DNA from: Actinomycetota bacterium
Lineage (GTDB): Bacteria > Actinomycetota > Acidimicrobiia > IMCC26256 > DASPTH01
DNA length: 64,000 nt
NCBI GenBank assembly: GCA_046727575.1
Contig: JBKPCV010000054.1
Location: forward strand, 21-64,020
Direction of reading: 5' to 3'
Of this stretch, positions 2,374-26,737 are shown piece after piece; the first letter of the stretch is position 1; every line of letters starts with the position of its first letter. The notes under the pieces were generated by a model. That model searched no databases. It saw only the letters and a program-made list of their open reading frames with translations, and was not told the DNA's origin. The position numbers and the translations under genes were made by a program.

Positions 2374-2427
2374 CTCGGACCACGGCTCGTTGCGGCGCAG
2401 GCTACCTTCGCCGCGGCCACTCGCCTC
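2374..2427. repeat. GC-rich hairpin repeat, copy in the tyrS 5' region / mpg 3' region
   Basis: ctcggaccacggctcgttGCGGCGCAGGctaCCTTCGCCGCggccactcgcctc; ~85% identical to copies at 5761 and 23283. Confidence 0.7.
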
Positions 2428-2440
2428 ATGCCGGGGGACG

Positions 2441-3052
2441 CTACCCGGTGGGCCGGCGCGGTCCGCGGCTGGTATAGGGGCTGTCGGGCACGACGAAGCG
2501 GAAGGCCGACTCGTCACCCTCGCCGGGCCGGAGACCGACGCGCGGGGTTACGAGCGGGGCGGCGGGAGGTGGCACGCCATCGTCGACAATGCGCACCTCG
2601 CCGCGCTTCTGGTCGACACCGTCATGTTCACGGGTGAGGCCGAACGCCTGGCAGAGCCGCGCGGGACCCGCGCACAACTCGCGATCCGACCGCGCCCTCA
2701 CACGACGCGCCCGCATCGCGTCGAGCCCGGCGACCGGCGCTGCGGCACGCAACAACACCGCCGACGCGTCCCCGTCGGCGTGCCCAACGACGTTCGCGCA
2801 CCAGTGCATGCCGTACGTGAAGTACACGTAGAGATGCCCGGGCGGCCCGAACATCGTGGCGTTCCGCCGTGTCATACCGCGGTACGCATGGCTGCCGGGA
2901 TCCTCAGAGCCGCAGTACGCCTCTGCTTCCACGATGCGCGCCGCGATGCGAGGCACGCGCGGTTCGGCCCGCACGAGCAGCTTGTTGAGCAGCAGCGGTG
3001 CGAGCTCGCGCGAGTCGCGCCGATAGAACGAGCGCGGAAGGGTTCGGCTCAA
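2441..3052 (-). CDS. mpg: DNA-3-methyladenine glycosylase (Mpg/AAG family)
   Basis: RIVEAEAYCG..DPGSHAYRGMTRRNATMFGPPGHLYVYFTYGMHWCANVV. TTG at 3052 lies 2 nt after the argH stop; the ORF-track start at 3130 would overlap argH by 77 nt. Confidence 0.85.
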   Translation of the reverse strand: MSRTLPRSFYRRDSRELAPLLLNKLLVRAEPRVPRIAARIVEAEAYCGSEDPGSHAYRGMTRRNATMFGPPGHLYVYFTYGMHWCANVVGHADGDASAVLLRAAAPVAGLDAMRARRVRARSDRELCAGPARLCQAFGLTREHDGVDQKRGEVRIVDDGVPPPAAPLVTPRVGLRPGEGDESAFRFVVPDSPYTSRGPRRPTG

Positions 3053-3053
3053 C

Positions 3054-4436
3054 TCAACGCTCGAGCCAACGCGCCTGTTCGTCGAGCCGCTGCTTGGCGG
3101 CGTCGAGTTGCTCGGCGACCGAATCGGCACCGGCCCCGCCGGCGCTCGTCCGGCGCGCGACGGCGGCGCCGGGCTCGAGGAGCGCGAGGGCGTCAGGACC
3201 GAGGTCGGGCTCGGTCATCACCAGCTCGTCGAGCGGCACCCGCCGCTCTTCGGACTGTCGCACAAGTACCCCGACGCGCCTGTGCGCCTCGCGGAACGGG
3301 ACGCCGCGCTCTACGAGCCATTCGGCGAGGTCGACGGCCGCGGACGTGGGGGTGTCCGCAGCCGCCCGCATGCGTTCAGGCAGGAACTCGGCGGTGGCGA
3401 TCAGGCCGGTCATGGCAGCGAGCGCGCGCCGATTCTGGTCGAGCGCGTCGAACAGTGGCTCCTTGTCTTCCTGGAGGTCGCGGTTGTACGCGAGCGGGAG
3501 GCCCTTGAGCGTCGCGAGGAATCCCGCGAGGTCGCCGATCAAGCGGCCGGCCTTGCCGCGCGCGAGCTCGGCGATGTCGGGATTCTTCTTCTGGGGCAAC
3601 ATCGACGATCCGGTGCTGTATGCGTCGGCGAGTCGTACGAACCCGAACTCTTCGGTGGACCAGAGCACGATCTCCTCGCCGAGGCGCGAAAGGTGGACCT
3701 GCGTGAGCGCGAGCACGAACAGCGCCTCCGCGACGAAATCGCGGTCGGACACGGCATCGAGCGAGTTGTCGAAACGACGCGCGAAGCCGAGCACGTCCGC
3801 GGTGTGGTCGGGATCGATCGGCAGGCTCGACCCGGCGAGCGCGCCGGCGCCGAGCGGCGACACGTCGACGCGCGTCAGCGTGTCGCGCCAGCGGTCGACG
3901 TCGCGGGCGAACGCCCAGAAATGCGCGAGGTGGTGGTGCGCCAGGAGAACGGGCTGCGCGCGCTGGAGGTGCGTGTAACCGGGCAGGTAGACGTCGGGTC
4001 CCGCGGCCTGCGCGCGATCCCACAGCACCTGCTGCAGCCCGTGGATCCGCCGCGCCGCATCGGTGCCCTCGCGGCGGAGGAACAGCCGCAGAGCAGTTGC
4101 GACCTGGTCGTTGCGGCTGCGCCCGGTGTGCAGCTTGGCACCGGCCGCGCCTGCGAGCTCGGTGACCCGACGTTCGATCGCGGTGTGGATGTCTTCGTCG
4201 TCCGGCGCGAAGGTGAACGTGCCCTCGACGAGCTCGACCTCGACGCGGCCGAGTGCGGCCGTGACCAGCGCCGCCTCCTCGTTCGTGAGCAGACCGACGC
4301 GTGCCAGCATCGCGACGTGCGCGCGCGAGCCCGTGACGTCGTCGGGGCCGAGGCGCCGATCGAACGGGAGACTCTCGGTGAACGCGATGAGCTCGTCGGC
4401 GGGACCATCGCCGAAACGACCGTGCCAGAGCGTCAT
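3054..4436 (-). CDS. argH: argininosuccinate lyase
   Basis: N-terminus MTLWHGRFGDGPADELIAFTESLPFDRRL, 460 aa. ATGA overlap with the argG stop. Confidence 0.97.
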   Translation of the reverse strand: MTLWHGRFGDGPADELIAFTESLPFDRRLGPDDVTGSRAHVAMLARVGLLTNEEAALVTAALGRVEVELVEGTFTFAPDDEDIHTAIERRVTELAGAAGAKLHTGRSRNDQVATALRLFLRREGTDAARRIHGLQQVLWDRAQAAGPDVYLPGYTHLQRAQPVLLAHHHLAHFWAFARDVDRWRDTLTRVDVSPLGAGALAGSSLPIDPDHTADVLGFARRFDNSLDAVSDRDFVAEALFVLALTQVHLSRLGEEIVLWSTEEFGFVRLADAYSTGSSMLPQKKNPDIAELARGKAGRLIGDLAGFLATLKGLPLAYNRDLQEDKEPLFDALDQNRRALAAMTGLIATAEFLPERMRAAADTPTSAAVDLAEWLVERGVPFREAHRRVGVLVRQSEERRVPLDELVMTEPDLGPDALALLEPGAAVARRTSAGGAGADSVAEQLDAAKQRLDEQARWLER

Positions 4437-5704
4437 CCGGCCTCCGGGCCGCCCTGCTCGCGCGCCCAGGTCTCCACGGAGAGGCCCCAGAGGCGGACGA
4501 ACCCTTCGGAGTCCTGGTGGCGGAACGTGTCCGACGCGTCATAGGTCGCCAGGTCGTAGCGGTAGAGGCCGTGCTCGGCGCGGCGGCCGGCAACGGTGCA
4601 GCTCCCCGGTTCGAGCCGCAGTCGCACATCGCCGGTGACGTGTTGTTGTGACGCCGTTATGAACGCGTCGAGCGCCTCGCGCAGCGGCGAGAACCACAGG
4701 CCGTCGTAGACGAGCTCCGCGTAACGCGGCTCCAGCCGGGACTTCTCGCGCATGAGGTCGCGCTCGAGGGTGATCGATTCGAGATCCGCGTGTGCGAGCA
4801 TCAGCGCGAGCGCGCCGGGACATTCGTAGTTCTCACGGCTCTTGATGCCGACGCGACGGTTCTCCACCATGTCGACGCGCCCCCAGCCGTACGGTCCGAC
4901 ACGAGCGGTCGTCTCGAGAACGAGCTCGTCGAGCGGCATCGCTTCACCATCGAGCGCGACCGGGACACCCTCCTCGAAGCCGACGACGAGCTCCCACGGC
5001 TCGAGCGCGCGCCCGTCGGGGTTAGTGGTGAGCGTGTAGATCTCGACGGGCGGTGCGGCCCACGGGTCCTCCAGCACGCCGCACTCGATGGCGCGGCCCC
5101 ATAGGTTCTCGTCGATCGAGAAGGGATTGTCCTTGCGCACCTTGATCGGGATGTTGTGCCGCGCCGCGTAGTCGATCGAGTCCTCACGAGTGAAGCCCCA
5201 CACACGGACCGGCGCGAGCACGTCGAGGTCGGGCGCCAGCGCGCGCACCGACACCTCGAAGCGCACCTGGTCGTTTCCCTTCCCGGTGCAACCATGGGCA
5301 ACGGCGTCGGCATTGAACGCGCGCGCCGCGCGGACGAGGTGACGCGCGATCACCGGACGCGACAACGCCGACACGAGCGGATACTTGGCCTCGTAGAGCG
5401 CGTTGGCACGAATCACGGGCGCGACGTAGCCGTCGGCGAATTCGCGCTTCGCGTCGACAACGATCGCTTCCACCGCGCCGGCGGCGAGCGCGCGGTCGCG
5501 GATCGTGTCCCAGTGACCGTCCTGTTGATGGTCGCGCTCGCTGCGGGCCGGGAAACCCGGCCCGCTCACGCTCGGCCACTCCTGCGGCTGCCCGACGTCG
5601 ACGGACAGCGCGATGACCTCGGCGCCCCACTCCTCCTGGATCCACTTCACCGCCACTGAGGTGTCGAGGCCACCCGAATATGCGAGCACCACACGCTTCG
5701 CCAT
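4433..5704 (-). CDS. argG: argininosuccinate synthase (carries a ~21-aa in-frame insertion derived from a repeat element)
   Basis: MAKRVVLAYSGGLDTSV ATP-binding N-terminus. ATG at residue 23 of ORF 4433..5770. Confidence 0.95.
   Translation of the reverse strand: MAKRVVLAYSGGLDTSVAVKWIQEEWGAEVIALSVDVGQPQEWPSVSGPGFPARSERDHQQDGHWDTIRDRALAAGAVEAIVVDAKREFADGYVAPVIRANALYEAKYPLVSALSRPVIARHLVRAARAFNADAVAHGCTGKGNDQVRFEVSVRALAPDLDVLAPVRVWGFTREDSIDYAARHNIPIKVRKDNPFSIDENLWGRAIECGVLEDPWAAPPVEIYTLTTNPDGRALEPWELVVGFEEGVPVALDGEAMPLDELVLETTARVGPYGWGRVDMVENRRVGIKSRENYECPGALALMLAHADLESITLERDLMREKSRLEPRYAELVYDGLWFSPLREALDAFITASQQHVTGDVRLRLEPGSCTVAGRRAEHGLYRYDLATYDASDTFRHQDSEGFVRLWGLSVETWAREQGGPEAG
5531..5575. 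repeat. GC-rich hairpin repeat copy embedded in frame in argG
   Basis: gtcgcgctcgctGCGGGCCGGGaaaCCCGGCCCGCtcacgctcgg, a 10-bp perfect stem. On the minus strand it encodes SVSGPGFPARSER. Confidence 0.75.
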
Positions 5705-5760
5705 GCGTTCTTCCCTTACCCTCCTACCCTCCGCTCTCGGCGGCTTTTGCCGCCGGGCTG

Positions 5761-5814
5761 CTCGGGCCACGCCTCGCTGCGGCGCAGGGTACCTGCGCCG
5801 CGAGACGCTCGGCT
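5761..5814. repeat. GC-rich hairpin repeat directly after the argR stop
   Basis: ctcgggccacgcctcgctGCGGCGCAGGgtaCCTGCGCCGCgagacgctcggctc, a 10-bp perfect stem. It abuts the argR stop at 5815. Confidence 0.8.
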
Positions 5815-6282
5815 CTAGAGACCGGCCAGACCAGCAAGCTCACCAGCGACTTGAGAACCGCGGGCGTTCTCCGAGCACACGACGAGGATGGTGTCGTCGC
5901 CGGCGACGGTACCGAGGACGTCGGGAAGACCGGCCCGGTCGATGGCGGACGCGACGACGTGCGCGGAGCCGGGCGGAGTGCGCAGCACAACGAGGTTGGT
6001 GCTGTGGGCGACCTCCACCACGAAGTCGCCCATCACCCGACGGAGATGGTCGTCGGGCGCGCTGCCCTCCTTGGCGTGCTCGGGGATCGCATACGCCGTG
6101 GCGCCGCCGGGGATGCGCACCTTGACCGCGCCGAGGTCCTCGAGGTCGCGGCTCACGGTCGCCTGCGTGGCGACGACGCCGTCGGATGCGAGGAGCTCGA
6201 CGAGCTGCACCTGGCTCGAGATCGCCTGCTCCTCGAGCAGGCGTGCGATGCGGTGCTGTCGTTGCGGCTTGCCGAGCGTCAC
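5815..6282 (-). CDS. argR: arginine repressor
   Basis: [50 protein letters not shown]. The GTG start forms a GTGA overlap with the argF stop. Confidence 0.9.
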
Positions 6283-7187
6283 GTCGCCGCTCCCACGAGC
6301 TGCGCGAGCAACGCACGCGCCGCGTGCATGCGGTTGGCGGCCTGCTGCCACACCCCGGACCGGGGCCCGTCGATGACGCCGGCCGACACCTCCTCGCCGC
6401 GGTGCGCCGGCAGACAGTGCAGGAACCACGCCTGTGGCCCGGCGGCGGCCATGAGCTCCTCGTCGACCGTGTAGCCCTCGAACGCGGCGCGCCGGGCCGC
6501 GGCCTCTTCTTCTTGCCCCATCGACGTCCACACGTCGGTGTAGACGGCGTCGGCAGCGCGCACGGCTTCGTACGGATCGGCGGTGAGCTCGATGGCGCCA
6601 CCGAGGTTGCGCGCCCGCTCGACCGTGTCGTCGTCGAGCTCGTAGCCCGCCGGGGACGCGACCGTGAGCTCGACACCCGACAGCGCGGCTGCAAACGCGA
6701 GTGATGCGGCGACATTGTTGCCGTCCCCGACGAACACCAACCGACGGCCTTCGAGGTCACCGAGCAATTCCTCCAGCGTGAGGAAGTCCGCAAGGGCCTG
6801 GCAGGGATGCGCGCGGTCGGACAGCAGGTTGACGACCGGCACGTCGGCGGCTGCCACCATCTCCTCGAGGGTTTCGTGGTGGAACACGCGCGCTGCGATC
6901 ACCGAGCAGTAGCACGCGAGCGTCCGGGCGACGTCGGCAACGGGCTCCCGCACACCCAAGCCGACCTCCTCGGGCCGAATGTAGATCGGGTGGCCGCCGA
7001 GCCCGACGACCGCCATCTCGGTGGACGTGCGTGTCCGCGTCGACGGCTTCTGGAACAGCAGCGCGACGCCCCGGCCGTCGAGGACCTTGGGCACCTGCGT
7101 GGGCTCGCGCTTCCAACACGCGGCCGCGTCGAGCACGGCAGCGAACTGGGCCGGCGTGAGGTCGTCGACCTCGAGGAACCGCTTCAT
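6279..7187 (-). CDS. argF: ornithine carbamoyltransferase
   Basis: [32 protein letters not shown]. The ATG is residue 186 of ORF 6279..7742. Confidence 0.95.
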
Positions 7188-8383
7188 CCGGAGCGCTCCG
7201 CCAGCACCCGTTCGAGGATCGCCACCGCCTCGTCGATCTCCTCGTCGGTGACCAGCAGCGGCGGCTCGAACCGCAACGCGGTCGGCGTGACCGCGTTCAC
7301 CACCAGGCCCGCGTGGAGGCACGCGTTCGCGACGGCGCCCGATTCGAGCCCCGGCGCGAGCTCGGCGGCGACGAGGAGCCCGGCCCCCCGCACGTCCGCG
7401 ACACCGGGGACGGCGAGGAGCGCCTTCATGAGCCGTTCCCCGGCGCGCCGCGCGAGCGCGGGGACGTCCTCGCTCTGCATGACCTCGAGGACCGCGAGCG
7501 CCGCGCGCGCGGCGAGCGGCTGCCCGCCGAAAGTCGTCGCGTGGTCCCCGGGCTTGAACGCAGCGGCGACGTCGCGGCGCGCCCAGCACGCGCCGATCGG
7601 CACGCCGTTGCCGAGGGCCTTGGCCATCGTCACGATGTCGGGTCGGACCCCGTCGGCATGCTGGAACGCGAACCACCTCCCGGTGCGACCGAGCCCGGCC
7701 TGCACCTCGTCGACGATCATCAGCGCCTCGCGTTCGTCGCACAACGCGCGCACCGCGGCGAGGTATCCGTCGGGCGCGGGGATCACACCGCCTTCACCCT
7801 GGATCGCCTCGAGCAGCACCGCGGTGACGCGACCGTCCATTGCGGCGGCGAGCGAGTCGACGTCGCCGAAGGTCACTTGTCGGAAGCCCGCGGGCAACGG
7901 CTGGAACACTTCCTGCTTCTGCGGCTGCCCGGTGGCTGCGAGCGTCGTGAGCGTGCGCCCGTGAAAGGAGCCGTACGCGGAGACAACGTGGTAGCGCTCG
8001 GGGCCACCGTTGGCCTGGCCATGACGCCGGGCGAGCTTGATCGCGCACTCGTTGGCCTCAGCGCCCGAGTTGGCGAAGAACACACGGCCGCCGCCGCCGA
8101 GCAGGTGGTCGAGCTGTTGCGCAACTCGGGGCTGCACGTCGTTGTAGTAGAGGTTCGACACGTGGAGGAGCGTGCGCGCCTGCTCGGCAATCGCGTCGGC
8201 CACTGCGGGATGTGCGTGCCCGAGCGAGGTCACCGCGAGCCCGCCGAGGAAGTCGAGGTACTCCCGACCCGCGCTGTCCCACAGGCGCGTTCCTTCACCC
8301 CGTACGAACGCGACCGGGAGCCGGCCGTACGTCTGCATGACGTAGTCGGCGTCGAGCGTCTGGATGTCCTCGAAGGGCGTCAT
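7184..8383 (-). CDS. argD: acetylornithine aminotransferase
   Basis: MTPFEDIQTLDADYVMQTYGRLPVAFVRGEGTRLWD, class III aminotransferase. ATGA overlaps at both ends. Confidence 0.95.
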   Translation of the reverse strand: MTPFEDIQTLDADYVMQTYGRLPVAFVRGEGTRLWDSAGREYLDFLGGLAVTSLGHAHPAVADAIAEQARTLLHVSNLYYNDVQPRVAQQLDHLLGGGGRVFFANSGAEANECAIKLARRHGQANGGPERYHVVSAYGSFHGRTLTTLAATGQPQKQEVFQPLPAGFRQVTFGDVDSLAAAMDGRVTAVLLEAIQGEGGVIPAPDGYLAAVRALCDEREALMIVDEVQAGLGRTGRWFAFQHADGVRPDIVTMAKALGNGVPIGACWARRDVAAAFKPGDHATTFGGQPLAARAALAVLEVMQSEDVPALARRAGERLMKALLAVPGVADVRGAGLLVAAELAPGLESGAVANACLHAGLVVNAVTPTALRFEPPLLVTDEEIDEAVAILERVLAERSG

Positions 8384-9261
8384 GAGGACTCCCACCTTGG
8401 TGGCTCCGCTTCGATCATCGTCCCGATGCCCTCGCGCGTGAAGAACTCGAGCAGCAGCGCGTGCGGGACGCGCCCGTCGAGAATGTGCGCGCGGCGTACG
8501 CCGTTGCGCAACGCGTCGGCGCACGACCGGACCTTCGGGATCATCCCCTCCGAGAGCTTTCCGTCGGCCTCGAGTCGCTCGAGCCCATGCGCGTCGATCC
8601 GGGAGATCAACGTTGCCTCGTCGGGATAGTCGGCGTACAGGCCGGCGACGTCCGTGAGGTACACGAGCTTCTCGGCGTCGACCGCACGGGCGATCGCGCC
8701 GGCTGCAGTGTCGGCATTGATGTTGTAGGCCTGCCCGGCGTCGTCCACGCCGATCGTGGCGATCACCGGGATGAGCTCCTCGTTGACGAGGCGTTGCACG
8801 ATCGAGGGGTCGACGCTGGCAACATCGCCGACGAACCCGAGACGCTGGTCGCGCATCGAAACCGTGATCAGGCCGGCGTCTTCGCCGGACAACCCGACCG
8901 CGTAGGAGCCGTGGCGGTTCACGCATGCGACGACCTCGCGGTTCACCTTGCCGACGAGCGCCATGCGGACGATGTCAACGGTCTCGGCGTCCGTCACGCG
9001 CAGGCCGTCGACGAATTGCGGCTTCTTGCCGAGCCGCTGCATCAGGTCGCTGATCTGCGGGCCGCCGCCGTGCACGATCACCGGGTTCATTCCTACGTGT
9101 CGCATCAGCACGACGTCCTGGGCGAACAGATCCGCGAGCGTCGGGTCGTCCATCGCGTGCCCGCCGTACTTCACCACGACCGTCTTGCCGGCGAACTCCT
9201 GGATGTACGGAAGAGCCTCGGCGAGGATCGCCGCCTTCTCCAGCACTCTTGCGTCGCTCAC
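8380..9261 (-). CDS. argB: acetylglutamate kinase
   Basis: LPYIQEFAGKTVVVKYGGHAM..VIVHGGGPQI; GTG start. Confidence 0.95.
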   Translation of the reverse strand: MSDARVLEKAAILAEALPYIQEFAGKTVVVKYGGHAMDDPTLADLFAQDVVLMRHVGMNPVIVHGGGPQISDLMQRLGKKPQFVDGLRVTDAETVDIVRMALVGKVNREVVACVNRHGSYAVGLSGEDAGLITVSMRDQRLGFVGDVASVDPSIVQRLVNEELIPVIATIGVDDAGQAYNINADTAAGAIARAVDAEKLVYLTDVAGLYADYPDEATLISRIDAHGLERLEADGKLSEGMIPKVRSCADALRNGVRRAHILDGRVPHALLLEFFTREGIGTMIEAEPPRWESS

Positions 9262-9292
9262 GACGTCCTCATTTTTCGTCCAGCACCATGGC

Positions 9293-9366
9293 GTCGCTCG
9301 CTGCGCCCGGGGATACCCCGACCGCAGTCGCTCGCTCCGCGTGCTCGCTCGACTTCGCTCGCTCCC
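9293..9366. repeat. GC-rich hairpin repeat plus CGCTCGCT-rich tail inserted between argJ and argB
   Basis: gtcgctcgctgcgCCCGGGGataCCCCGaccgcagtcgctcgctcc, followed by gtgctcgctcgacttcgctcgctccc. Confidence 0.8.
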
Positions 9367-10563
9367 TCACGAGGTCCTCATGTTCTCGTCCACATACGCG
9401 TTCGTGAGATCCGTGAACGTCACCGTCGCGGACCCAGTGCCGGCGTGCAGGTCGGCCTCGATCAGGATCTCGCGGTCCTCCATCAGCGCCGCGAGCGCGG
9501 CGTCGTCGTGCGCGGCGGCGACGCCGTCCCGGCAGACCGGGATGCCCTGGTAGGAGATGTCGGCCCGCTCGGGGTCGAACCGGGCGCCGCTCGCGCCCAG
9601 CTCGGACAGCACCCGACCCCAGTACGGGTCGTTCCCGTAGAGGGAGCACTGCACGAGCTGGCTCCCGGCGACGGCGCGCGCTGCGGTACGGGCCTCGGCC
9701 GCCGAACGTGCACCGTGCACCACGATGGTGGCGAGCTTCGTCGCGCCCTCGGCGTCCGCCGCCATCTGCCGGGCGAGGTCGGAACACGCGGCCGCGAGCG
9801 CATCGCCGAACGCTTCGTAGCCGCGGCCGGTGCGGGCAATCGGCTCGTTTCCGAGTGCTCCATTCGCGAGCACCAGCACGGTGTCGTTGGTGCTCGTGCA
9901 GTCGTCGACGATCAGGCTGTTGAACGAATCGGTCACTGCGCGCGTGAGCATGGCGTGGAGAGCGGTGGCGTCGACCGCGGCGTCCGTCGTGAGGACCGCG
10001 AGCATCGTGGCCATCGCGGGAGACAGCATGGCCGCGCCCTTAGCCATCCCACCGACAGTGGCGGTCACGCCGCGTGCGATCTCGACGCGCTGCACCGTCT
10101 CCTTGCGCACTGTATCGGTGGTGAGAATGGCGTCGGCAGCCGCTTGCCCATGCCCGCTCGAGTCGAGGGCAGCGACCAGCTTCGGGATGCCGGCCTTCAC
10201 CGGCCCCATCGGCATCGGGATGCCGATCAGACCGGTCGAGCAGACGAGCACGTCGCGCGTGGCGCAGCCCAGTCCTTCCGCAGTGAGCTCTGCCATTCGC
10301 AGCGCGTCACGCCGGCCGGCTTCGCCGGTCGCCGCATTCGCGTTGCCCGAGTTGAGCACCACCGCGGCGGCGCGCCCGTCGTGGAGGTGACGGCGGCTGA
10401 CCTGGACGGGTGCGGCCGCGACCAGATTGGACGTGAAGACACCGGCGGCGCTGACCGCCGCGTGGTCGGCCGTGGCGACGATCGCGAGGTCGGGCGCGCC
10501 CGACGGTTTGATGCCGCACGCGAGCCCGCCGGCAACGAAGCCCGCGGCCGCGGTCACGCTCAC
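9367..10563 (-). CDS. argJ: bifunctional glutamate N-acetyltransferase / amino-acid acetyltransferase
   Basis: MSVTAAAGFVAGGLACGIKPSGAPDLAIV..., 398 aa. Confidence 0.95.
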   Translation of the reverse strand: MSVTAAAGFVAGGLACGIKPSGAPDLAIVATADHAAVSAAGVFTSNLVAAAPVQVSRRHLHDGRAAAVVLNSGNANAATGEAGRRDALRMAELTAEGLGCATRDVLVCSTGLIGIPMPMGPVKAGIPKLVAALDSSGHGQAAADAILTTDTVRKETVQRVEIARGVTATVGGMAKGAAMLSPAMATMLAVLTTDAAVDATALHAMLTRAVTDSFNSLIVDDCTSTNDTVLVLANGALGNEPIARTGRGYEAFGDALAAACSDLARQMAADAEGATKLATIVVHGARSAAEARTAARAVAGSQLVQCSLYGNDPYWGRVLSELGASGARFDPERADISYQGIPVCRDGVAAAHDDAALAALMEDREILIEADLHAGTGSATVTFTDLTNAYVDENMRTS

Positions 10564-10591
10564 GCTTTCCCGCCCTCGGTGCCAGCTGACC

Positions 10592-11629: not shown

Positions 11630-11636
11630 GCCGCAT

Positions 11637-11656
11637 ACTATACAGGTTGCTGTATA
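11637..11656 (-). promoter_or_regulatory. candidate leaderless argC promoter (-10 TATAGT) overlapping an 18-bp palindrome (candidate ArgR operator)
   Basis: The minus strand carries TATAGT (11642-11637) 7 nt before the argC ATG. Palindrome TATACAG-GTTG-CTGTATA lies at 11639-11656. This is the only AT-rich patch in the region. Confidence 0.4.
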
Positions 11657-11657
11657 G

Positions 11658-13933: not shown

Positions 13934-13935
13934 CC

Positions 13936-13970
13936 GTGCAGATTGTGCAATTTTTCAGTCTGCGCAGCAA
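13936..13970 (-). promoter_or_regulatory. candidate promoter/operator of the MFS-TetR operon
   Basis: AT-rich stretch gtgcagattgtgcaatttttcagtctgcgca, directly upstream of the MFS ATG. Imperfect inverted repeat GTGCAGA..TCTGCGC. Confidence 0.3.
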
Positions 13971-14772: not shown

Positions 14773-14818
14773 GAGCCCATGCGGTCGGAGCGCGAAGCGG
14801 GCGGTTCGGCGGCGCGGG

Positions 14819-15217: not shown

Positions 15218-15223
15218 CGCTGA

Positions 15224-17620: not shown

Positions 17621-17645
17621 CAGAACCCGAACATCAGACCGGACA

Positions 17646-19525: not shown

Positions 19526-19850
19526 GTGCGGAAAACGCGGCGGCGTCGCGCACGGCGAGGTCGGCGAGGATCTTGCGGTCGACGTCGATCTCCGCCGCCT
19601 TCAGTCCCGAGATGAAACGCGAGTAGCTGATGTCGTTCTGACGGCACGCCGCGTTGATGCGCACGATCCAGAGCTTGCGGAACTCGCCTTTTCGCGCGCG
19701 GCGATCGCGGTACGCGTAGTTGCCGGAGTGCATGACTTGTTCGTTGGCCTTGCGGAAGCTCCGACTGCGCGAACCGCGGTAACCCGACGCCGACTCCAGG
19801 ACCTTGCGGTGCCGCTTCTTGCTGTGGACGGATCGTTTGACCCTGGCCAT
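19488..19850 (-). CDS. rplT: 50S ribosomal protein L20
   Basis: [30 protein letters not shown]. Confidence 0.97.
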
Positions 19851-19896
19851 CGGGTGGGACTCCTCGATTCGTGAGTAGCGAAGACGGCGCGAGCCG

Positions 19897-20091
19897 TCAG
19901 CGGCCGAGTAGCCGCTTCGCCTTCTTCTTGTCGGCGCCGACGAGCTCGGCGGGGCGTGCCAGCCGACGCGTCCGCTTGCTGGGCTTCTTCTCGAGCAGGT
20001 GCGAGCGATTCTGCTTGCGGCGGAAGACCTTGCCGGTCCCCGTCACCTTGAAGCGCTTCGCCGCACCTCTATGCGCTTTCTGCTTGGGCAT
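19897..20091 (-). CDS. rpmI: 50S ribosomal protein L35
   Basis: [36 protein letters not shown], from residue 11 of ORF 19897..20121. Confidence 0.95.
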
Positions 20092-20665
20092 CACGTACTC
20101 CGTTGACTTCAGCTGAGGCAACGGCGCCGTTGTCCCTCGCCTTGCGTCCGTCCTTCCTCGTCGGGTGCAGGACCATCGTCATGTTCCGGCCGTCCTGCCG
20201 CGGCTGCGACTCGATGACCGCGAGGTCGCCGACGTCGTCTGCGATGCGGCGTAAGATCCGCATGCCGAGCTCCGGATGAGCGATCTCTCGTCCGCGCAGC
20301 CAGATCGTGAGCTTGACCTTGTTGCCCTCGTCGAGGAAGCGGATCACGTGCTTCATCTTCGTGGCGTAGTCGTGCTCGTCGATCTTCGGCTTGAACTTCA
20401 TCTCCTTGATGACGACCTTCGTGGCCTTCCGTTTCGACTGGCGGCGCCGCTGCTCTTGTTCGTAGACGTATCGGCCGTAGTCCATGATCCGGGCAACGGG
20501 CGGGTTGGCGTTGGGCGCCACCTCGACCAGATCGAGCTGGAGGTCACGAGCTCGAGCGAGCGCCTCCGGCAGCGGCTTCACGCCGAGCTGCTCCCCGTCG
20601 GAACCGACGAGGAAGACCTCCCGGGCTCGGATGCGGTCGTTGATCCTGACCTCGTGGGCGGCTAT
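20069..20665 (-). CDS. infC: translation initiation factor IF-3, non-canonical ATA start
   Basis: The conserved N-domain [22 protein letters not shown] lies upstream of the first canonical start (GTG at 20581). An in-frame TGA sits at ~20699-20701. The non-canonical in-frame candidates upstream of the conserved domain are ATA at 20665 and, 18 nt downstream, ATC. Confidence 0.88.
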
Positions 20666-20744
20666 CTGGTCACCTGCTTCATCGGGCCATTGGCTCCCTC
20701 ACTCTTTCTCACAATGGGTACGGCGTGCCTCGGAACGCGAAAAT

Positions 20745-20767
20745 GGCGGACACGGGAAGCGTCCGCC
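20745..20767 (-). promoter_or_regulatory. terminator-like hairpin in the infC leader (possible attenuator)
   Basis: Minus strand reads GGCGGAC-GCTTCCCGT-GTCCGCC followed by ATTTTCGCGTT, ~80 nt upstream of the infC start. Confidence 0.3.
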
Positions 20768-20923
20768 ACACCGGTGCCGCTCGAGCATCGCCCTCGCGGT
20801 CACGACGCGAACCCGGACGCACGCGCACGCATGCGGTGGCCGGGCGGGGACAACGGGTATCAAGCTCCTGCCATCAAGCCGCGGAGTCCCACTTCCCTTG
20901 GTTGATCCTGAAAGGATACCAGC

Positions 20924-21349
20924 GTGAGCACACTGTGGACACCCTCGGGCGAATACGACCCGACGGAACGGACCGACGAGCCCGGTGCGACCGAGCGCGC
21001 TCCGCAGGCGGCCGGCGGGGCCGAGCGCGAACCGACCCCCGAGGAGCTCGAGGAGATGCTGCGGGCTCGCGCCGAGCTCGCGTCGGTGCCGGTCACCGAC
21101 ATCATCGCCAATCACGCCGTCGGGCTCTGGCAGCTGGCGCTGCTGCATCTCGTCCCTGACCCCGGACCCGACGGCACGCCGACGCCGCCGCGCCTGCAGG
21201 ACGCCGCCCTCGCCATCGATGCGCTGGCCGCGCTCGTCGACGGGTTGGGTGCGCGCCTCGCGCCGAACGACGAGGCGCTCCGGGAGGCCCTGGCCCAACT
21301 GCGTCTCGCCTACGTCCAGGTCTCGAGCAACGAGACTGCACCTTCGTGA
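20924..21349 (+). CDS. DUF1844-like conserved hypothetical protein
   Basis: GTG start; VTDIIANHAVGLWQLALLHL..LQDAALAIDALAALVDGLG. From memory, this family is divergent from infC in actinobacteria. Confidence 0.6.
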   Translation: MSTLWTPSGEYDPTERTDEPGATERAPQAAGGAEREPTPEELEEMLRARAELASVPVTDIIANHAVGLWQLALLHLVPDPGPDGTPTPPRLQDAALAIDALAALVDGLGARLAPNDEALREALAQLRLAYVQVSSNETAPS

Positions 21350-21376
21350 GACCGTCAGCGTGGTGAACTCCTCGTC

Positions 21377-23179
21377 GTGAGCTCACTCATCGAGCAGTAC
21401 GCGCTCATCGGCGACACACAGACGGCCGCGCTCGTCGGCAACGACGGGTCGATCGACTGGCTGTGCGTGCCCCGGTTCGACTCGGAGGCGTGTTTCGCCG
21501 CGTTGCTCGGCGACGAACGCGACGGCCGCTGGCTCATCGGTCCAGCAAGTGGCGCGCGCGCGACGCGCCGGCGGTACCGCGACGACACGCTCGTGCTCGA
21601 GACCGAGTACGAGACTCCCGACGGGATCGTTCGCGTCACGGACTGCATGCCGATCCGAGACCGCACCATCGACATCGTGCGCGTGGTCAAAGGAGTGCGC
21701 GGTACCGTACCCATGAAACTAGAACTGTGGGTGCGATTCGACTACGGGAACGTGGTGCCATGGGTGCGCTCCACCGACCATACGGTCCTCATGATCGCGG
21801 GCCCCGACGCCCTCCGGCTCGTCTCGCCGTTCAAGATCACCGGACACGAGTTTCGCCACGACGCTCAATTCGTCGTGGGCGAGGGCGACAGCGTGCCGTT
21901 CGTCCTCACGTGGTACCCCTCGTACCACAAGGAACCTCCGGGGATCGATCCAGTGCGCGCTGTCGCACGCACGACCGCATGGTGGCAGGACTGGTCGGCG
22001 CGGTCCACGTTCAAGGGCGAGTGGCGCGACGCGGTGCACCGTTCGCTCATCACGCTCAAGGCCCTCACCTACGCGCCGACCGGCGGCATCGTCGCCTCGC
22101 CCACGACGTCACTGCCCGAGTGGCCCGGCGGAGTTCGGAACTGGGACTACCGCTACTGCTGGCTGCGCGATGCGACGTTCACGCTCTACTCGCTGATGAT
22201 GGCCGGCTACGTCAAGGAAGCCGTCGAATGGCGTGACTGGCTGCTGCGCGCGGTCGCGGGTGACCCCTCGCATCTCCAGATCATGTACGGGCCGGCTGGC
22301 GAGCGACGCCTCGACGAGTACGAACTCGACTGGCTCGCTGGTTACGAGGGCTCGAAACCGGTGCGCGTCGGCAACGCCGCATCGAGTCAGTTCCAACTCG
22401 ACGTCTTCGGCGAGGTGTTCGACGCGTTGCACCAGGCACGCCACATGGAGGTACACGAGGACGCGAGTGCGTGGTCACTCCAACTCGCCATTCTCGAATT
22501 TCTCGAGTCGGCGTGGCAACAACCCGACGAGGGAATCTGGGAGGTGCGCGGCGGCCGCAAGGACTTCACCCACTCGAAGGTGATGGCGTGGGTGGCATTC
22601 GACCGCGCCGTACGAGGGGTCGAAGAATTCGGGCTCGAAGGCCCGGTCGACAAGTGGCGCGCCCGCCGCGATGAAGTGCACCGTGAGGTGCTCGACGAGG
22701 GTTTTGACCCCGACCGCAACACGTTCACCCAGTACTACGGATCGAAGTCGATCGACGCGAGCAGCCTCATGATCCCGTTGGTCGGCTTCCTTCCTCCCGA
22801 CGACGAACGAGTCAAGGGCACCGTTGCTGCCATCGAACGCGAGCTCGTCCTCGACGGTTTCGTGATGCGCTACGCAACCGAGGAGGGTGTCGACGGCCTC
22901 CCGCCCGGTGAGGGACTCTTCCTCCCCTGCTCCTTCTGGCTCGCCGACAACCTCTGCTTGATCGGACGTGTGGCCGACGGCCAAGCGCTGTTCGAGCGTC
23001 TGCTCGAGCTGCGCAACGACGTGGGACTGTTGTCGGAGGAGTACGACCCGAAGACGCGGCGGATGCTCGGAAATTTCCCACAGGCGTTCACACACGTGTC
23101 GCTCGTGAACACCGCCTGCAACCTCGCGCACATCACCAGTCCCGCGTCACACCGCGCCACCGGTCGGCACCGGCAGTAG
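21377..23179 (+). CDS. glycoside hydrolase family 15 (glucoamylase/trehalase-like)
   Basis: IEQYALIGDTQTAALVGNDGSIDWLCVPRFDSEACFAALLG, WDYRYCWLRDATFTL, 600 aa. Confidence 0.9.
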   Translation: MSSLIEQYALIGDTQTAALVGNDGSIDWLCVPRFDSEACFAALLGDERDGRWLIGPASGARATRRRYRDDTLVLETEYETPDGIVRVTDCMPIRDRTIDIVRVVKGVRGTVPMKLELWVRFDYGNVVPWVRSTDHTVLMIAGPDALRLVSPFKITGHEFRHDAQFVVGEGDSVPFVLTWYPSYHKEPPGIDPVRAVARTTAWWQDWSARSTFKGEWRDAVHRSLITLKALTYAPTGGIVASPTTSLPEWPGGVRNWDYRYCWLRDATFTLYSLMMAGYVKEAVEWRDWLLRAVAGDPSHLQIMYGPAGERRLDEYELDWLAGYEGSKPVRVGNAASSQFQLDVFGEVFDALHQARHMEVHEDASAWSLQLAILEFLESAWQQPDEGIWEVRGGRKDFTHSKVMAWVAFDRAVRGVEEFGLEGPVDKWRARRDEVHREVLDEGFDPDRNTFTQYYGSKSIDASSLMIPLVGFLPPDDERVKGTVAAIERELVLDGFVMRYATEEGVDGLPPGEGLFLPCSFWLADNLCLIGRVADGQALFERLLELRNDVGLLSEEYDPKTRRMLGNFPQAFTHVSLVNTACNLAHITSPASHRATGRHRQ

Positions 23180-23200
23180 GAGACGAAGCGGAGCCGTGCA

Positions 23201-23246
23201 CGAGCGAGCGGCCGCGAGCCGGGTATCCCGGCGAGCAGCGAGCGAC
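23201..23246. repeat. GC-rich hairpin repeat, inverted orientation
   Basis: cgagcgagcggccgcgaGCCGGGtatCCCGGCgagcagcgagcgac. Its reverse complement aligns with the 9293 and 26101 copies. Confidence 0.75.
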
Positions 23247-23282
23247 CCGGTATCCGGATGAGCGGGACGGCGCAGCGGGCCG

Positions 23283-23335
23283 CTCGGGCCACGCCTCCCT
23301 GGCGCAGGATACCTGCGGCGCGGTCGCTCGGCTCA
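23283..23335. repeat. GC-rich hairpin repeat directly after the hisG stop
   Basis: ctcgggccacgcctccctgGCGCAGGataCCTGCGgcgcggtcgctcggctc. A short CCGGtatCCGG hairpin lies between the two copies at 23247-23257. Confidence 0.8.
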
Positions 23336-23337
23336 GG

Positions 23338-24213
23338 TCAGTGCACGATCTTGGCGATCGGGAGCTCGATGATCCCGGCCCCACCCGCGTCCTTCAGGGC
23401 TGGGATGAGCGTGTTGATCTCCTGCTTCGACACGACGGTCTCGACGGCGTAGCCGTCTTCGCCCGACAACTTCGACACGGTCGGGGCCTTCAATGCCGGG
23501 AGCAGCGCAATGACCGCATCGAGGTTCGCAGCGTCGACGTTGAGCTTCAGGAGCACGCGACCGCGCGCTTCGAGCACACCCGTGAGCAGGCTCTGCAGCT
23601 GTTCCATCGCCTTGCGCTTGTCGGCATGCTGGTACGACTGCGGATTCGCGATCAACTCGGTGTGCGACACCATGAGCGTGTCGATGACCCTGAGGCCTGC
23701 CGCACGCAGCGCGCGTCCCGTCTCGGTGAGCTCGACGACCGCGTCGGCGATGTCAGGCACCTTCGCTTCCGTGGCGCCGTACGACAGGTGGACGTCGGCG
23801 TCGACGCCGCGCTTCGCGAAGTAGCGGCGAGTCAGGTCGGGATACTCGGTGTGCACGACGACACCATTCGGGAGGTCCGTGACCGCCCGAGCCGGCGAAT
23901 CGGCGGCGACTGCCAGAACGATCTGCACCGGACGCGCCGTCGCTTTCGAATAATGCAGCTCCGAGAGCGTCACGACGTCGACGTTGCGTTCCTCGATCCA
24001 GTCGCGCCCGGTGATCCCGAGGTCGAAGCGACCCTCCGCAACGTATTGCGGGATCTCTTGGGGGCGCAGGATCCGCACCTCGACGACGCGCGGGTCGTCG
24101 ATGGTGCCGCGGTAGTCGACGTCGGACCCGCGGTTCACCGCGAGGTCGGCGTCCTCGAAGAGCTGGAGGGTCTGGCGTTCGAGGCTGCCCTTGGGGAGCA
24201 CGAGGCGGAGCAT
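23338..24213 (-). CDS. hisG: ATP phosphoribosyltransferase (long form)
   Basis: [24 protein letters not shown]..., 291 aa. The ATG shares one nt with the ribH stop (TGATG). Confidence 0.93.
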   Translation of the reverse strand: MLRLVLPKGSLERQTLQLFEDADLAVNRGSDVDYRGTIDDPRVVEVRILRPQEIPQYVAEGRFDLGITGRDWIEERNVDVVTLSELHYSKATARPVQIVLAVAADSPARAVTDLPNGVVVHTEYPDLTRRYFAKRGVDADVHLSYGATEAKVPDIADAVVELTETGRALRAAGLRVIDTLMVSHTELIANPQSYQHADKRKAMEQLQSLLTGVLEARGRVLLKLNVDAANLDAVIALLPALKAPTVSKLSGEDGYAVETVVSKQEINTLIPALKDAGGAGIIELPIAKIVH

Positions 24214-24686
24214 CACTGGTCCCTTCGAGGGAATTGGCCGAGGAGGCTCACCATCTCGACCGCGGTACGTGCGGCCTCGCTCCCCTTGTGACCGCGCTCT
24301 CCCCCTGCACGGGCCATGGCCTGGTCGAGGTTGTCGGTGGTGAGCACCCCGAAGATGACCGGCGTGCCGCTGTCGAGCGCCACTCGCTGGATCCCCGCCG
24401 CGCACTCGCCCGCGACGTACTCGAAGTGCGCGGTGTCGCCGCGGATCACGGCTCCGAGACAGATCACGGCGTCGTAGGACGGCGCGAGGCGCTGCGCGAG
24501 GAGCGGAATCTCGAACGCGCCGGGGACCCAGTACACGGGCACCTCGTCGGCGCCGAAGTCGCGGAGCGTGTCGAGCGCGCCCTCGAGCAGCGGCTTGGTG
24601 ACGTGGTCGTTGAACCGGCCGGCGACGATCGCGAGGCGCATGCCACTGGCGTCGAGCTCGCCTTCGAATTCCTTGTACTCACCCAT
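24213..24686 (-). CDS. ribH: 6,7-dimethyl-8-ribityllumazine synthase
   Basis: [38 protein letters not shown]; ATG at residue 35 of the ORF. Confidence 0.95.
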
Positions 24687-24693
24687 CTCTCTG

Positions 24694-24730
24694 GTCGCAC
24701 TCACTCGGCGCCGGGATACGCCATCGTCAT
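24694..24730. repeat. truncated hairpin-repeat copy
   Basis: gtcgcactcactcggcgccgggatacgccatcgtcatgg: left flank plus half a hairpin. Confidence 0.5.
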
Positions 24731-24731
24731 G

Positions 24732-24783
24732 GTTCGCTCCCTGCGCACCGGGATACCCGGTGCGCGGCCGTTCGCTCACTGCC
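24732..24783. repeat. GC-rich hairpin repeat (full copy) between ribBA and ribH
   Basis: gttcgctccctGCGCACCGGGataCCCGGTGCGCggccgttcgctcactgcc, a 10-bp perfect stem. Confidence 0.8.
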
Positions 24784-24785
24784 AC

Positions 24786-24855
24786 CACAACGGGTACGTT
24801 CGCTCTGCTCCTGCGAGTTCACTCGCTCGCGCCGCTCACTCGCTCACCGCCCTGC
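24786..24855. repeat. degenerate repeat debris (CGCTC-rich) between ribBA and ribH
   Basis: aacgggtacgttcgctctgctcctgcgagttcactcgctcgcgccgctcactcgctcaccgcc. Confidence 0.45.
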
Positions 24856-24860
24856 CGGAC

Positions 24861-26078
24861 CTAGCTCGTGCTCTCGTCGATCTCCAGGAGATGACCGAGC
24901 TTCTGCTGCTTCGTGCGGAGGTAGCGGATGTTCTCGGTGTTCGGGAGCACGTGCAGGGGCACGCGCTCCACGATCTCGAGACCGTAGCCGTCGAGGCCGC
25001 CGTACTTGTCCGGATTGTTGGTCATCACGCGCATCGTCGAGACTCCGAGGTCGACGAGGATCTGCGCACCGATGCCGTACTCCCGGGAGTCAGGCGGGAA
25101 CCCGAGCTCCACATTGGCTTCCACGGTGTCGAGGCCCTGATCCTGCAGGGTGTACGCGCGGAACTTGTGGCCCAAGCCGATGCCCCGTCCCTCGTGCCCG
25201 CGGAGATACACCACGACCCCCGTGCCTTCCTCGGCGATGAGCCGCAGCGCCAGATCCAGCTGCAGACCACAGTCGCAGCGCATCGAACCGAACACGTCGC
25301 CGGTCAGGCACTCGGAGTGGACCCGCACGAGCACGTCGTCCTTGCCCGCCACCTCGCCGCGCACGAACGCCATGTGCTCGGTGCCGTCGAGCAACGACTC
25401 GAATACGTACGCGGTGAAGTCGCCGTAGCTCGTGGGGATGCGCGCCTCGGAGACCCGCCGCACCAGCTTCTCGCGGTGCCGGCGGTAGCGGACGAGATCC
25501 GCGATCGAGATCACCAGCAGACCGTGCTCGCGGGCAAAACGCTCGAGCTCCGGCAGACGGGCCATCGAACCGTCGTCGTTCACCACCTCCGCCAGCACCC
25601 CCGCCGGCCGCAACCGTGCCATGCGGGCGAGATCGACGGAAGCCTCGGTGTGGCCCGCGCGGGTGAGCACTCCACCTTCGCGGTAGCGCAACGGGAAGAT
25701 GTGCCCGGGTCGGGCGAGGTCTTCGGGTCGGGTGTCCTCGTCGAGGATCGCGTGGACGGTCGCGCACCGGTCGGCGGCAGAGATGCCCGTGGACGTGCCG
25801 TGCTTGGCGTCGACCGAGACCGTGAAGGCCGTCCGCTGCGACTCGGTGTTCTCGGCGACCATCAGCGGGATACGGAGCTCGTCGAGGCGGTGCCCTTCGA
25901 CCGGCATGCAGATGACGCCGCTCGTGTGACGGATCATGAACGCCATCGTCTCCGGCGTCATCTTCTCGGCGGCGATGATCAGGTCGCCCTCGTTCTCGCG
26001 GTCGACGCTGTCGACCACGATCACCATCTCCCCCCGCGCGATGGCCTCGATGGCCTCTTCGATCTTCGTGAAGGGCAT
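24861..26078 (-). CDS. ribBA: bifunctional 3,4-dihydroxy-2-butanone-4-phosphate synthase / GTP cyclohydrolase II
   Basis: VVDSVDRENEGDLIIAAEK.., HTEASVDLARMA, RVHSECLTGDVFGSMRCDCG. Confidence 0.96.
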   Translation of the reverse strand: MPFTKIEEAIEAIARGEMVIVVDSVDRENEGDLIIAAEKMTPETMAFMIRHTSGVICMPVEGHRLDELRIPLMVAENTESQRTAFTVSVDAKHGTSTGISAADRCATVHAILDEDTRPEDLARPGHIFPLRYREGGVLTRAGHTEASVDLARMARLRPAGVLAEVVNDDGSMARLPELERFAREHGLLVISIADLVRYRRHREKLVRRVSEARIPTSYGDFTAYVFESLLDGTEHMAFVRGEVAGKDDVLVRVHSECLTGDVFGSMRCDCGLQLDLALRLIAEEGTGVVVYLRGHEGRGIGLGHKFRAYTLQDQGLDTVEANVELGFPPDSREYGIGAQILVDLGVSTMRVMTNNPDKYGGLDGYGLEIVERVPLHVLPNTENIRYLRTKQQKLGHLLEIDESTS

Positions 26079-26083
26079 GCTCC

Positions 26084-26737
26084 TCAGCCTTCTGCATTGG
26101 GTCGCTCGCTACGGCCGGGGGTACCCCGGCCGCTCACGCTCGCTTCCCCTCTCGTCACCAAACGTTCCACATACTTCGCCACGATGTCGACTTCGAGGTT
26201 CACGGGGTCTCCGACTGTCTTTGAACCCAGCGTCGTGACCGCGAGCGTGTGCGGGATGACCGCGACAGCGAACCCGTCGTCGAGAACGTCCGCGACGGTG
26301 AGGCTGATGCCGTCGACGGTCACCGAACCCTTCTCCACGATGTAGCGCAGCACGTACGGCGGCGCGGCGAACTCCACACGGCGTGATCCGTCGGCCAGGG
26401 GCTCCCGTGCTCGAATATGCCCGACCGCGTCCACATGGCCTTGCACGAGGTGTCCGCCGAGACGGTCCTCGAGGCGCACCGGGCGTTCGAGGTTCACCGC
26501 GTCACCAGCCTCCAGATCCCCGAGCTCGGTCCGGGTGAGTGTCTCCGTGACCGCGTCGGCCGCGAAGCCACCCTCGCCGAGCTCGACCACTGTGAGGCAG
26601 CAACCGTTCACCGCGATGGACGCCCCGATCGCCAGGTCCGTGAGCACCTGAGTCGCCGCGATCTCGATGCGCGCCCCGCCGCCGATCGGATGCACCCCGC
26701 GCACGGTGCCGACCTCCTCGACGATGCCGGTGAACAC
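26084..26737 (-). CDS. ribE: riboflavin synthase alpha chain with a repeat-derived C-terminal extension
   Basis: MFTGIVEEVGTV.. (GTG start), two lumazine-binding repeats. The tail after KYVERLV reads through the 26101 repeat. Confidence 0.93.
   Translation of the reverse strand: MFTGIVEEVGTVRGVHPIGGGARIEIAATQVLTDLAIGASIAVNGCCLTVVELGEGGFAADAVTETLTRTELGDLEAGDAVNLERPVRLEDRLGGHLVQGHVDAVGHIRAREPLADGSRRVEFAAPPYVLRYIVEKGSVTVDGISLTVADVLDDGFAVAVIPHTLAVTTLGSKTVGDPVNLEVDIVAKYVERLVTRGEASVSGRGTPGRSERPNAEG
26101..26147. repeat. GC-rich hairpin repeat inside the 3' end of ribE
   Basis: gtcgctcgctaCGGCCGGGGgtaCCCCGGCCGctcacgctcgcttcc, a 9-bp perfect stem. Confidence 0.8.

Follow-up and report, generated by a model that had tools for sequence, protein, structure and literature searches.

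The 64,000-nucleotide stretch analysed here (the window; contig JBKPCV010000054.1 of an Actinomycetota bacterium assigned to the Acidimicrobiia) carries eight copies of a short, G+C-rich hairpin repeat, most of them at gene junctions and two inside genes. With a probability of roughly 0.6, these copies belong to a lineage-wide Acidimicrobiia family whose members are short non-coding repeats that propagate themselves; REP, MIRU and RPE are comparable elements. Between species with 85-90% identical proteins, units have been gained, lost, inverted, tandemly amplified and eroded. The paired structure of the hairpin is conserved while its letters change, and further copies occur in many other genomes of the lineage.

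Copies in the window and across the Acidimicrobiia

All eight full-length copies listed in a preliminary description of this DNA were recovered where it had placed them. In the direction of the surrounding genes, and with the 3-nt loop as the centre, their alignment is gap-free and reads GAGCGAGCG-NN-arm (10-11 nt)-TAY-complementary arm-GCGAGCGAC. The family pattern has six matches in the window, corresponding to five distinct copies, against 0.00 expected from 100 dinucleotide-preserving shuffles. That the hairpin is kept rather than any one sequence, as had been proposed, is borne out by the alignment of the eight copies: the 10-bp stem is 93.6% paired, with compensatory changes on both sides at 5 of the 10 pairs. 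None of 500 shuffles matches the observed pairing or covariation score, and pairing falls to 36-49% when the stem partner is shifted by one to three columns. A covariance model built from the eight copies scores each of them at 58-68 bits, and the rest of the window at less than 19 bits. Hairpins of any kind with a 3-nt loop number 34 in the window, only slightly above the shuffle mean of 24.6 (shuffle range 13-35), so that the family, and not G+C-rich palindromes as such, constitutes the signal. The loop is TAY in six of the eight window copies, a set free of retrieval bias, and the intact copies fold much better than shuffled sequences (z scores of -2.1 to -4.4), while eroded copies do not.

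The distribution of the family was explored by scanning one genome per species (GTDB set) with the pattern GAGCGN{11,15}GGTAYCCNNNNNNGYAGSGAG. This yielded at least 113 stretches from at least about 50 metagenome-assembled genomes (MAGs), nearly all labelled Acidimicrobiia or 'uncultured Actinomycetes', and the source studies of the matching assemblies concern soil, lake and sediment. In these stretches the covariance model finds at least 132 further copies, with scores of up to 71.5 bits, some above those of the training copies; the question set beforehand, whether copies exceed the shuffled expectation, is thereby answered in the affirmative. The few matches in other phyla either have no model match or lie on 3-5-kb contigs, the latter probably mis-binned. 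The window RibBA protein has exact matches on 13 JGI metagenome contigs and in 0 isolate genomes, and the nearest relatives that bear a name are labelled 'MAG: Acidimicrobiia bacterium', which points to an uncultured acidimicrobial source. Rfam gives no match on any copy, neither in a scan of the window at gathering thresholds nor at E-values of up to 5 on positions 1-27000, and a literature search returned nothing relevant on an Acidimicrobiia repeat family. The initial impression of an unnamed dispersed family in the manner of REP/BIME, MIRU and RPE is upheld by the many copies elsewhere together with the lack of an Rfam match. A phage origin was considered and rejected, there being a single match in 2.9 million viral contigs (IMG/VR). 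Counts of the 7-mer GCGAGCG were likewise discarded as a marker of the family, the motif being common in coding sequence on both strands. The window copies are the following (ORF, open reading frame; SD, Shine-Dalgarno sequence).

Copy A: 2346..2429, minus strand; three-hairpin sub-family, degenerate, 66.6 bits; at the start of tyrS
Copy B: 5513..5587, minus strand; within the argG ORF (4433-5704, minus); loop TTT, not TAY
Copy C: 5727..5814, minus strand; three-hairpin sub-family; between the argR stop TAG (5817-5815) and the SD and ATG (5704) of argG; z score -4.4
Copy D: 9269..9370, minus strand; with a GAGCGAGC-rich 5' extension; occupies the argJ-argB spacer
Copy E: 23180..23278, plus strand; directly after the stop of the plus-strand GH15 gene (21377-23179); variable unit of ~117 nt
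Copy F: 23277..23337, minus strand; three-hairpin sub-family, truncated, 57.7 bits; directly after the hisG stop (23340-23338)
Composite G: 24699..24853, minus strand; ribBA-ribH spacer; decayed long-form unit, intact core (24722-24786) and half-hairpin remnant; 68.3 bits
Copy H: 26090..26143, minus strand; within the 3' end of the ribE ORF (26084-26737, minus); z score -3.6

The true units are 55-120 nt long, and the size of 45-55 bp given at first was too small. Three sequences initially taken for truncated copies (23247-23257, 24694-24730 and 24786-24855) belong to composite units of greater length; a fourth (63158-63192) has no covariance-model support, and its site is the leader of a chorismate-synthase-like gene. 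The preliminary description did not include the correct unit length, the division into sub-families, the copies inside the argG and ribE ORFs or the translation signals within the units, nor did it note that the eighth copy is oriented like its own upstream gene.

Three sub-families can be told apart by their flanks. The first has the 3' end GCGAGCGA, followed by a purine-rich SD-like stretch and often by CATGG. Many of its members also have a 5' extension of ~55 nt that is rich in GAGCGAGCG (at least 36 long forms); a consistent hairpin in this extension (GCGAG...CTCGC) was considered and dropped, as it varies between copies. The second sub-family, which includes the argG copy, has CCGGAGCR at its 5' side and GCGAGCGCGACCA at its 3' side. 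In the third, to which window copies A, C and F belong, the first part reads (A/G)TGA-GCGAGCG-hairpin 1-GCGAGCGG-hairpin 2 (GGGCC-CGAGC-GGCCC) and the second part hairpin 3 (variable, 5-6 bp)-GAGAGCGG-AAG-(A/G)TGAGC. Over 20 sequences of this type the three helices are 91.6% paired and 10 of 19 pairs are compensated; 0 of 500 shuffles score as high, and no slid register comes near the observed helix pairing. Throughout the family the unit ends are direct GAGCG-type repeats around a central palindrome, without terminal inverted repeats, and the hairpins are followed by (A)GCGAGCG, with no T run after any of them.

Variation of the stem was assessed over 140 copies, that is, the matches listed together with those of the window. 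They contain 65 distinct stems, in which 1261 of 1400 stem cells are Watson-Crick pairs, and TAT loops (85 copies) outnumber TAC loops (52). Among the mismatches on the sense strand, G.T (25) outnumbers A.C (8). In ~38 of the same 140 copies a tandem G.A/A.G mismatch occupies pairs 7-8, with the arms CGCGAGCCGGG and CCCGGCGAGCA (for example at 23213-23237 in the window). Both arms then contain GCGAG, which makes, with the flanking GCGAGCG, four GCGAG motifs per unit in the same direction; the mismatch could be a protein-binding motif or a sheared-GA RNA motif.

Tandem arrays were found in five of the stretches (L050, L061, L076, L100 and L115). The array at L100:7300-7800, about eight head-to-tail core units of 55 nt (GGAGCGAGCGGCCGCGAGCCGGGTATCCCGGCGAGCAGCGAGCGACCCAGGTGTC), amounts to a minisatellite form of the element. 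Another kind of repeat, with a relationship to the GAGCG type, forms four tandem 69-nt units between ribH and hisG at L125:7344-7601, in antisense orientation (GAAGCGGAGGCGTGGCCGGATGGCCGGGACGCCGGAGCGG on the other strand); in the window, ribH and hisG overlap by 4 nt at this site.

Insertion sites, translation signals and copies inside genes

Gain and loss of units can be followed at orthologous junctions, which are compared below for the window and its relatives.

argR-argG: empty in relatives L121, L122 and L123 (CTCTAGGAGGAACTCATG), with the stop TAG overlapping the SD (TAGGAGG); 88 nt in the window, with TAG on both sides
argJ-argB: a copy with other stem letters in L120; a copy in opposite orientation in L121; filled in the window
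ribBA-ribH spacer: 10 nt in L125; 27 nt in L124; ~175 nt in the window
Downstream of hisG: empty in L125; one long-form copy in L124; copies E and F in the window
tyrS junction: TAG-11 nt-ATG (tyrS) without element in L120 and L121; copy A after that ATG in the window

Sites in relatives with 85-90% identical proteins are often empty or differently occupied, and the units are therefore not conserved local regulatory hairpins, in keeping with the dispersed character first ascribed to them. At argJ-argB of L120 the start of argB is supplied by the CCATGG of the element. Variation extends to the species level, for contigs L001-L006 of the same species have two tandem 117-nt units in the hisG-GH15 gap, where the window has one.

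Orientation follows the neighbouring genes. The bias described at the outset stands, and only the count of seven copies out of eight has to be corrected: the copy counted as inverted (23201-23246) follows the stop of the GH15 gene (23177-23179) and is also sense to its own upstream gene, so that all eight copies are sense. In the larger set, the coding strand beside each copy was called from the G+C phase at codon positions, and tandem neighbours were merged; where the flanking genes are co-directional, the matches listed comprise 53 copies in sense and 15 in antisense orientation (p = 4e-6). Copies E and F face each other in the gap of the convergent GH15 and hisG genes. Since these adjacent copies each follow the stop of their own upstream gene, orientation tracks the gene and not the local direction of replication.

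The units also seem closely fitted to translation signals. The stop of the upstream gene usually precedes the unit, and in at least 12 copies it is a TGA abutting GCGAGCG. Of the 16 units among the matches listed that have (A/G)TGAG at both ends, 10 are 2 mod 3 in length; this would allow a mini-ORF to run from an ATG or GTG overlapping the upstream TGA to a TGA overlapping the next start. In the window, copy A begins with an ATG that serves relatives as the start codon of tyrS, and it contains a mini-ORF of 28 codons (27 sense codons and the stop), ending at TAG 2348-2346; tyrS restarts two bases on at GTG 2343-2341. The mini-ORF of copy D extends from a GTG overlapping the argJ stop (GTGA, 9370-9367) to TGA 9271-9269, 7 nt before the GTG of argB at 9261. 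At the level of the nucleotide letters, copies at junctions can be seen to bring or restore an ATGA or GTGA overlap, an open mini-ORF and its stop, and a predicted SD with a start; translation of the neighbouring genes would thus continue.

About 5% of the copies, among the matches listed, lie within ORFs. One such case is argG. In most Acidimicrobiia the protein has 401-403 residues and reads VDVGQTADDDWDTIR, without insert. The window protein and three others at 89-90% identity share an insert of ~21 extra residues (20-21); in the window the divergent stretch covers residues 40-64, between DVGQ and WDTIR. In the gene, the empty site CAA ACG GCC GAC GAC GAC TGG has received an in-frame insert of ~60-63 nt. 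Other forms of ArgG include one with two tandem 20-residue units (period of 60 nt), one that has lost the hairpin core (24 nt lost between short repeats) and one that has decayed. The peptide read from the element copy would include ...PSVSGPGFPARSER.... The segment is absent from the solved ArgG structures (PDB 4u7j and 1j1z), and AlphaFold places residues 40-63 between a conserved strand and a conserved helix, without secondary structure and with a predicted local distance difference test score (pLDDT) below 50, in a model that is only moderate overall (mean pLDDT 67).

In the case of RibE, most homologues have 198 residues and end in ...AKYVERLLTREG*, and the window protein has 19 additional C-terminal residues. 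Here an insert of 54-57 nt precedes the last two codons, with GAA on both sides, leaving GAA GGC TGA and the ribBA start intact. Further copies in ORFs affect a DnaE2-like gene (two copies), a NadA-like gene, an acyl-CoA-dehydrogenase-like gene and one other ORF. The DnaE2/ImuC-like ORF at L017:550-4119 has two insertions of ~40-50 residues, one sense near 833-896 and the other antisense near 2136-2195. At least two reading frames are used by in-ORF copies (...PG[IT]PARSER... and ...ERAS...AAASE...). Every insert length measured (63, 2x60, 36 and 57 nt) is divisible by three, and the inserts lack stop codons; the copies are therefore read through rather than bypassed, and they are probably translated as extra peptide segments. 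Translational bypass, of the type known from T4 gene 60 or the mitochondrial 'byps', was considered and is unlikely given five insert lengths that are multiples of three and free of stops.

As to the genomic surroundings, the window has a G+C content of 70% and nearly all its genes lie on the minus strand. In the first 30 kb this strand carries ribD-ribE-ribBA-ribH-hisG, infC-rpmI-rplT, pheS-pheT, argC-J-B-D-F-R-G-H, a DNA glycosylase gene and tyrS, gene names being taken from the Pfam families listed for identical or orthologous contigs. Positions 1-396 (minus) hold the 5' portion of a bacterial 16S rRNA gene (377 bits), and the end of the window hence lies within an rRNA operon just downstream of tyrS. 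A LAGLIDADG homing-endonuclease ORF (PF00961) is situated at L120:20274-20804, a few kb downstream of tyrS and at the expected rRNA operon, and may indicate that an rRNA gene there contains a group I intron. The SufB-like ORF at L011:5784-7880 has a large internal insert, starting CVGKSP... and ending ...VVHNS, which looks like an intein with a homing-endonuclease domain. On the 4-Mb long-read contig, gene calls at L120 (7995-9925) and L124 (6846-8198) comprise an ArgD fragment of 178 residues, a joined argF and argR product of 465 residues and a joined ribH and hisG product of 450 residues. Frameshifts, genuine fusions or effects of gene calling where genes overlap could each account for them. 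No tRNA or tmRNA is associated with the copies in the window. Rfam reports 0 FMN riboswitches in the window despite the ribD-ribE-ribBA-ribH cluster (24861-28400), which is embedded in a longer co-directional gene run. A sub-threshold match to the Guanidine-II riboswitch at 7402-7472 (plus; 22.3 bits against a gathering threshold of 32, E = 1.3) lies opposite coding sequence and is most likely due to chance.

Spread of the family and competing explanations

The copies accumulate at the sites where they do least harm: after stops, at starts, between cistrons and, within ORFs, in frame at the C-terminal end of RibE and in a predicted low-confidence, unstructured ArgG loop. Spread would proceed through copying and insertion of units as hairpins of single-stranded DNA; insertion would generate very short target duplications (3-8 nt) or use microhomology, and the responsible factor would act in trans. 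Slippage between terminal direct repeats would give rise to the tandem arrays. The sense hairpins are probably stabilisers or insulators of the mRNA rather than terminators.

A number of points weigh against this interpretation. The RAYT/IS200 link suggested at the outset found no support: IS200, RayT and IS608 proteins gave 0 matches in ~8,000 ORFs from ~1 Mb around the copies, in a phmmer comparison that is a weak test. Clustering of neighbouring ORFs, as a way to a recurrent mobilising gene, returned only housekeeping families (acyl-CoA dehydrogenase, SDR, thiolase, ligase and ABC transporter). Target duplication is clear in only two cases, both of 3 nt (GAA at ribE and TAG at argR-argG); the ArgG and tyrS sites are ambiguous in this respect, and the ATGAGCGA repeats possibly belong to the element itself rather than to a duplicated target. 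Open mini-ORFs are expected by chance at ~75% G+C, which leaves the overlaps and the length class as the informative parts, and the excess of units of 2 mod 3 is modest, some of them being in tandem and hence non-independent. In the large set, conservation of GGTAYCC and GAGCG arises partly by construction, because the retrieval pattern fixes those letters. The density of 8 copies per 64 kb in the window and 2-3 per 32 kb in unbiased stretches of relatives would correspond to some hundreds of copies in a whole genome, or about 1 per 8-15 kb, a figure that is pure extrapolation from sampled stretches.

A different possibility is that the hairpins are cis-regulatory RNA selected by the host, acting as factor-independent terminators devoid of a U-tract, as operon attenuators or as barriers to 3' exonucleases. 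Such a function would agree with the sense-strand bias, with the preponderance of G.U-type over A.C-type mismatches, with the position of the third sub-family directly after stops and of copies E and F between convergent genes, and with the stable, covarying stems of the intact copies (z scores of -2 to -4.4). As an account of the family it is nevertheless quite improbable, for in close relatives the orthologous junctions are empty, carry another sub-family or carry the opposite orientation, and tandem number varies within the species. Moreover, GCGAGCG takes the place of a U-tract after every hairpin, about a fifth of the copies are antisense among the matches listed, and some copies lie within essential ORFs, where termination would be lethal.

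Among the mobile-element explanations, a REP/REPIN system mobilised by a RAYT (a Y1 transposase of the IS200/IS605 type encoded once elsewhere in the genome, with the hairpin as its recognition site in single-stranded DNA) seems rather unlikely. REPINs are defined (PMC3337134 and PMC3116915) as non-autonomous elements replicated by single-copy RAYTs. The short G+C-rich palindromic core with arms that vary yet stay complementary would suit such a system, as would the high copy number, the chromosomal, not phage-borne location and the GTAG beside the stem in some copies. Most copies, however, have GCAG instead, are single and sense-oriented rather than arranged in inverted pairs, and many reside within operons and some within ORFs. 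A weak search of the ~1 Mb of flanks gave no Y1 transposase ORF; a RAYT could equally be encoded outside these stretches. Far less probable is a MITE-type arrangement in which the central palindrome consists of two abutting terminal inverted repeats and GCGAGCG is the target-site duplication. It would account for short non-coding units that are present or absent at orthologous sites and for the short duplications at two sites. GCGAGCG as a target-site duplication was rejected, however, as empty sites lack it and the flanking GCGAGCG therefore belongs to the unit. In addition, the unit ends are direct and not inverted repeats, the middles of the arms vary too freely (65 distinct stems among the matches listed) to fit a transposase-binding repeat well, and neither the weak search of the flanks nor neighbour-gene clustering revealed a parent insertion sequence.

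A more specific proposal, which is to be regarded as doubtful, is that the repeats represent a type of selfish element that is adapted to translational junctions, perhaps even targeting them, and that spreads without a classical transposase or terminal inverted repeats. Copying might then be primed by hairpins or microhomology at replication or repair, or might involve a transcript-derived intermediate, which would explain the sense bias. It could further be imagined that the single-stranded GAGCG motifs between the three hairpins are binding sites of a putative factor of the host or of the element. If true, the family would offer a tractable and far larger comparative data set for MIRU-like elements, whose spread is unexplained.

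Comparison with known small repeats

Knowledge of small interspersed repeats comes chiefly from Proteobacteria (REP/REPIN, ERIC and Correia), Rickettsia (RPE) and mycobacteria (MIRU). With the family described here, the poorly studied and mostly uncultured Acidimicrobiia gain an abundant repeat of their own, joining traits of REP (the covarying hairpin), MIRU (coupled mini-ORFs and variable tandem number) and RPE (in-frame insertion in essential enzymes) that are usually separate. There are practical consequences as well. The repeats distort gene calls in MAGs through extended or fused ORFs and shifted starts (tyrS, ribE and argB), are likely break points in short-read assembly, and could possibly serve as markers for strain typing. 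Since public metagenomes show one and the same site empty, filled, inverted, doubled or eroded, insertion and decay become accessible to study.

The MIRU of mycobacteria resemble the Acidimicrobiia family in being units of 50-120 nt in the operons of a high-G+C actinobacterial lineage, mostly co-oriented with transcription, and in occurring singly or as tandem arrays of variable number (here 1 or 2 units in the hisG-GH15 gap and 1 or 2 in ArgG). In both, insertion takes place at start/stop junctions and an ORF of the unit overlaps the codons of its neighbours (ATGA): the relevant passage of PMC12548453, citing Supply et al. 1997, has a small MIRU ORF overlapping the flanking stop and start codons and insertion at start codons. 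The Acidimicrobiia family differs by its covarying hairpin of 10-11 bp with a TAY loop, its GCGAGCG direct repeats, its in-frame insertion into ORFs and its non-Mycobacterium host. A blastn-short comparison with a mycobacterial repeat 23-mer (PMC10117815) and an unverified MIRU unit produced nothing above the reversed-sequence control.

With REP, BIME and REPIN sequences the family shares short, imperfect, G+C-rich palindromes that are dispersed, numerous and chromosomal and in which complementarity is kept, and a stabilising role at mRNA 3' ends is plausible here too. Unlike REP and REPIN, its consensus beside the stem is GCAG-CGAGCG, with GTAG in few copies. Its copies are mostly single or in direct tandem instead of inverted pairs (the E/F pair follows its two genes), and they often lie between translationally coupled cistrons or in ORFs and are thus not strictly extragenic. 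Correia/NEMIS, ERIC and similar MITE-like repeats are alike in being small dispersed repeats that are co-transcribed with their neighbours and may form RNA hairpins. Their terminal inverted repeats and their defined target duplications (TA for Correia) contrast with the direct-repeat flanks of the present family, which lacks terminal inverted repeats.

For copies inside genes the closest parallel is RPE. Ogata and colleagues are said to have described, in 2000, palindromic repeats that lie in frame in Rickettsia protein genes and are translated, with orthologues lacking the insert. The Acidimicrobiia copies are likewise in-frame palindromic inserts in genes, including essential ones, that have insert-free orthologues, and the ArgG segment is a predicted low-confidence loop. 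The in-ORF units measure 57-63 nt, compared to roughly 100-150 nt for RPE, and belong to another host phylum, probably with unrelated sequence. Membership of RPE is implausible in view of the host and the G+C content (70%). The family is MIRU-like at operon junctions, RPE-like in genes and REP-like in its core, and corresponds in full to no one of these classes.

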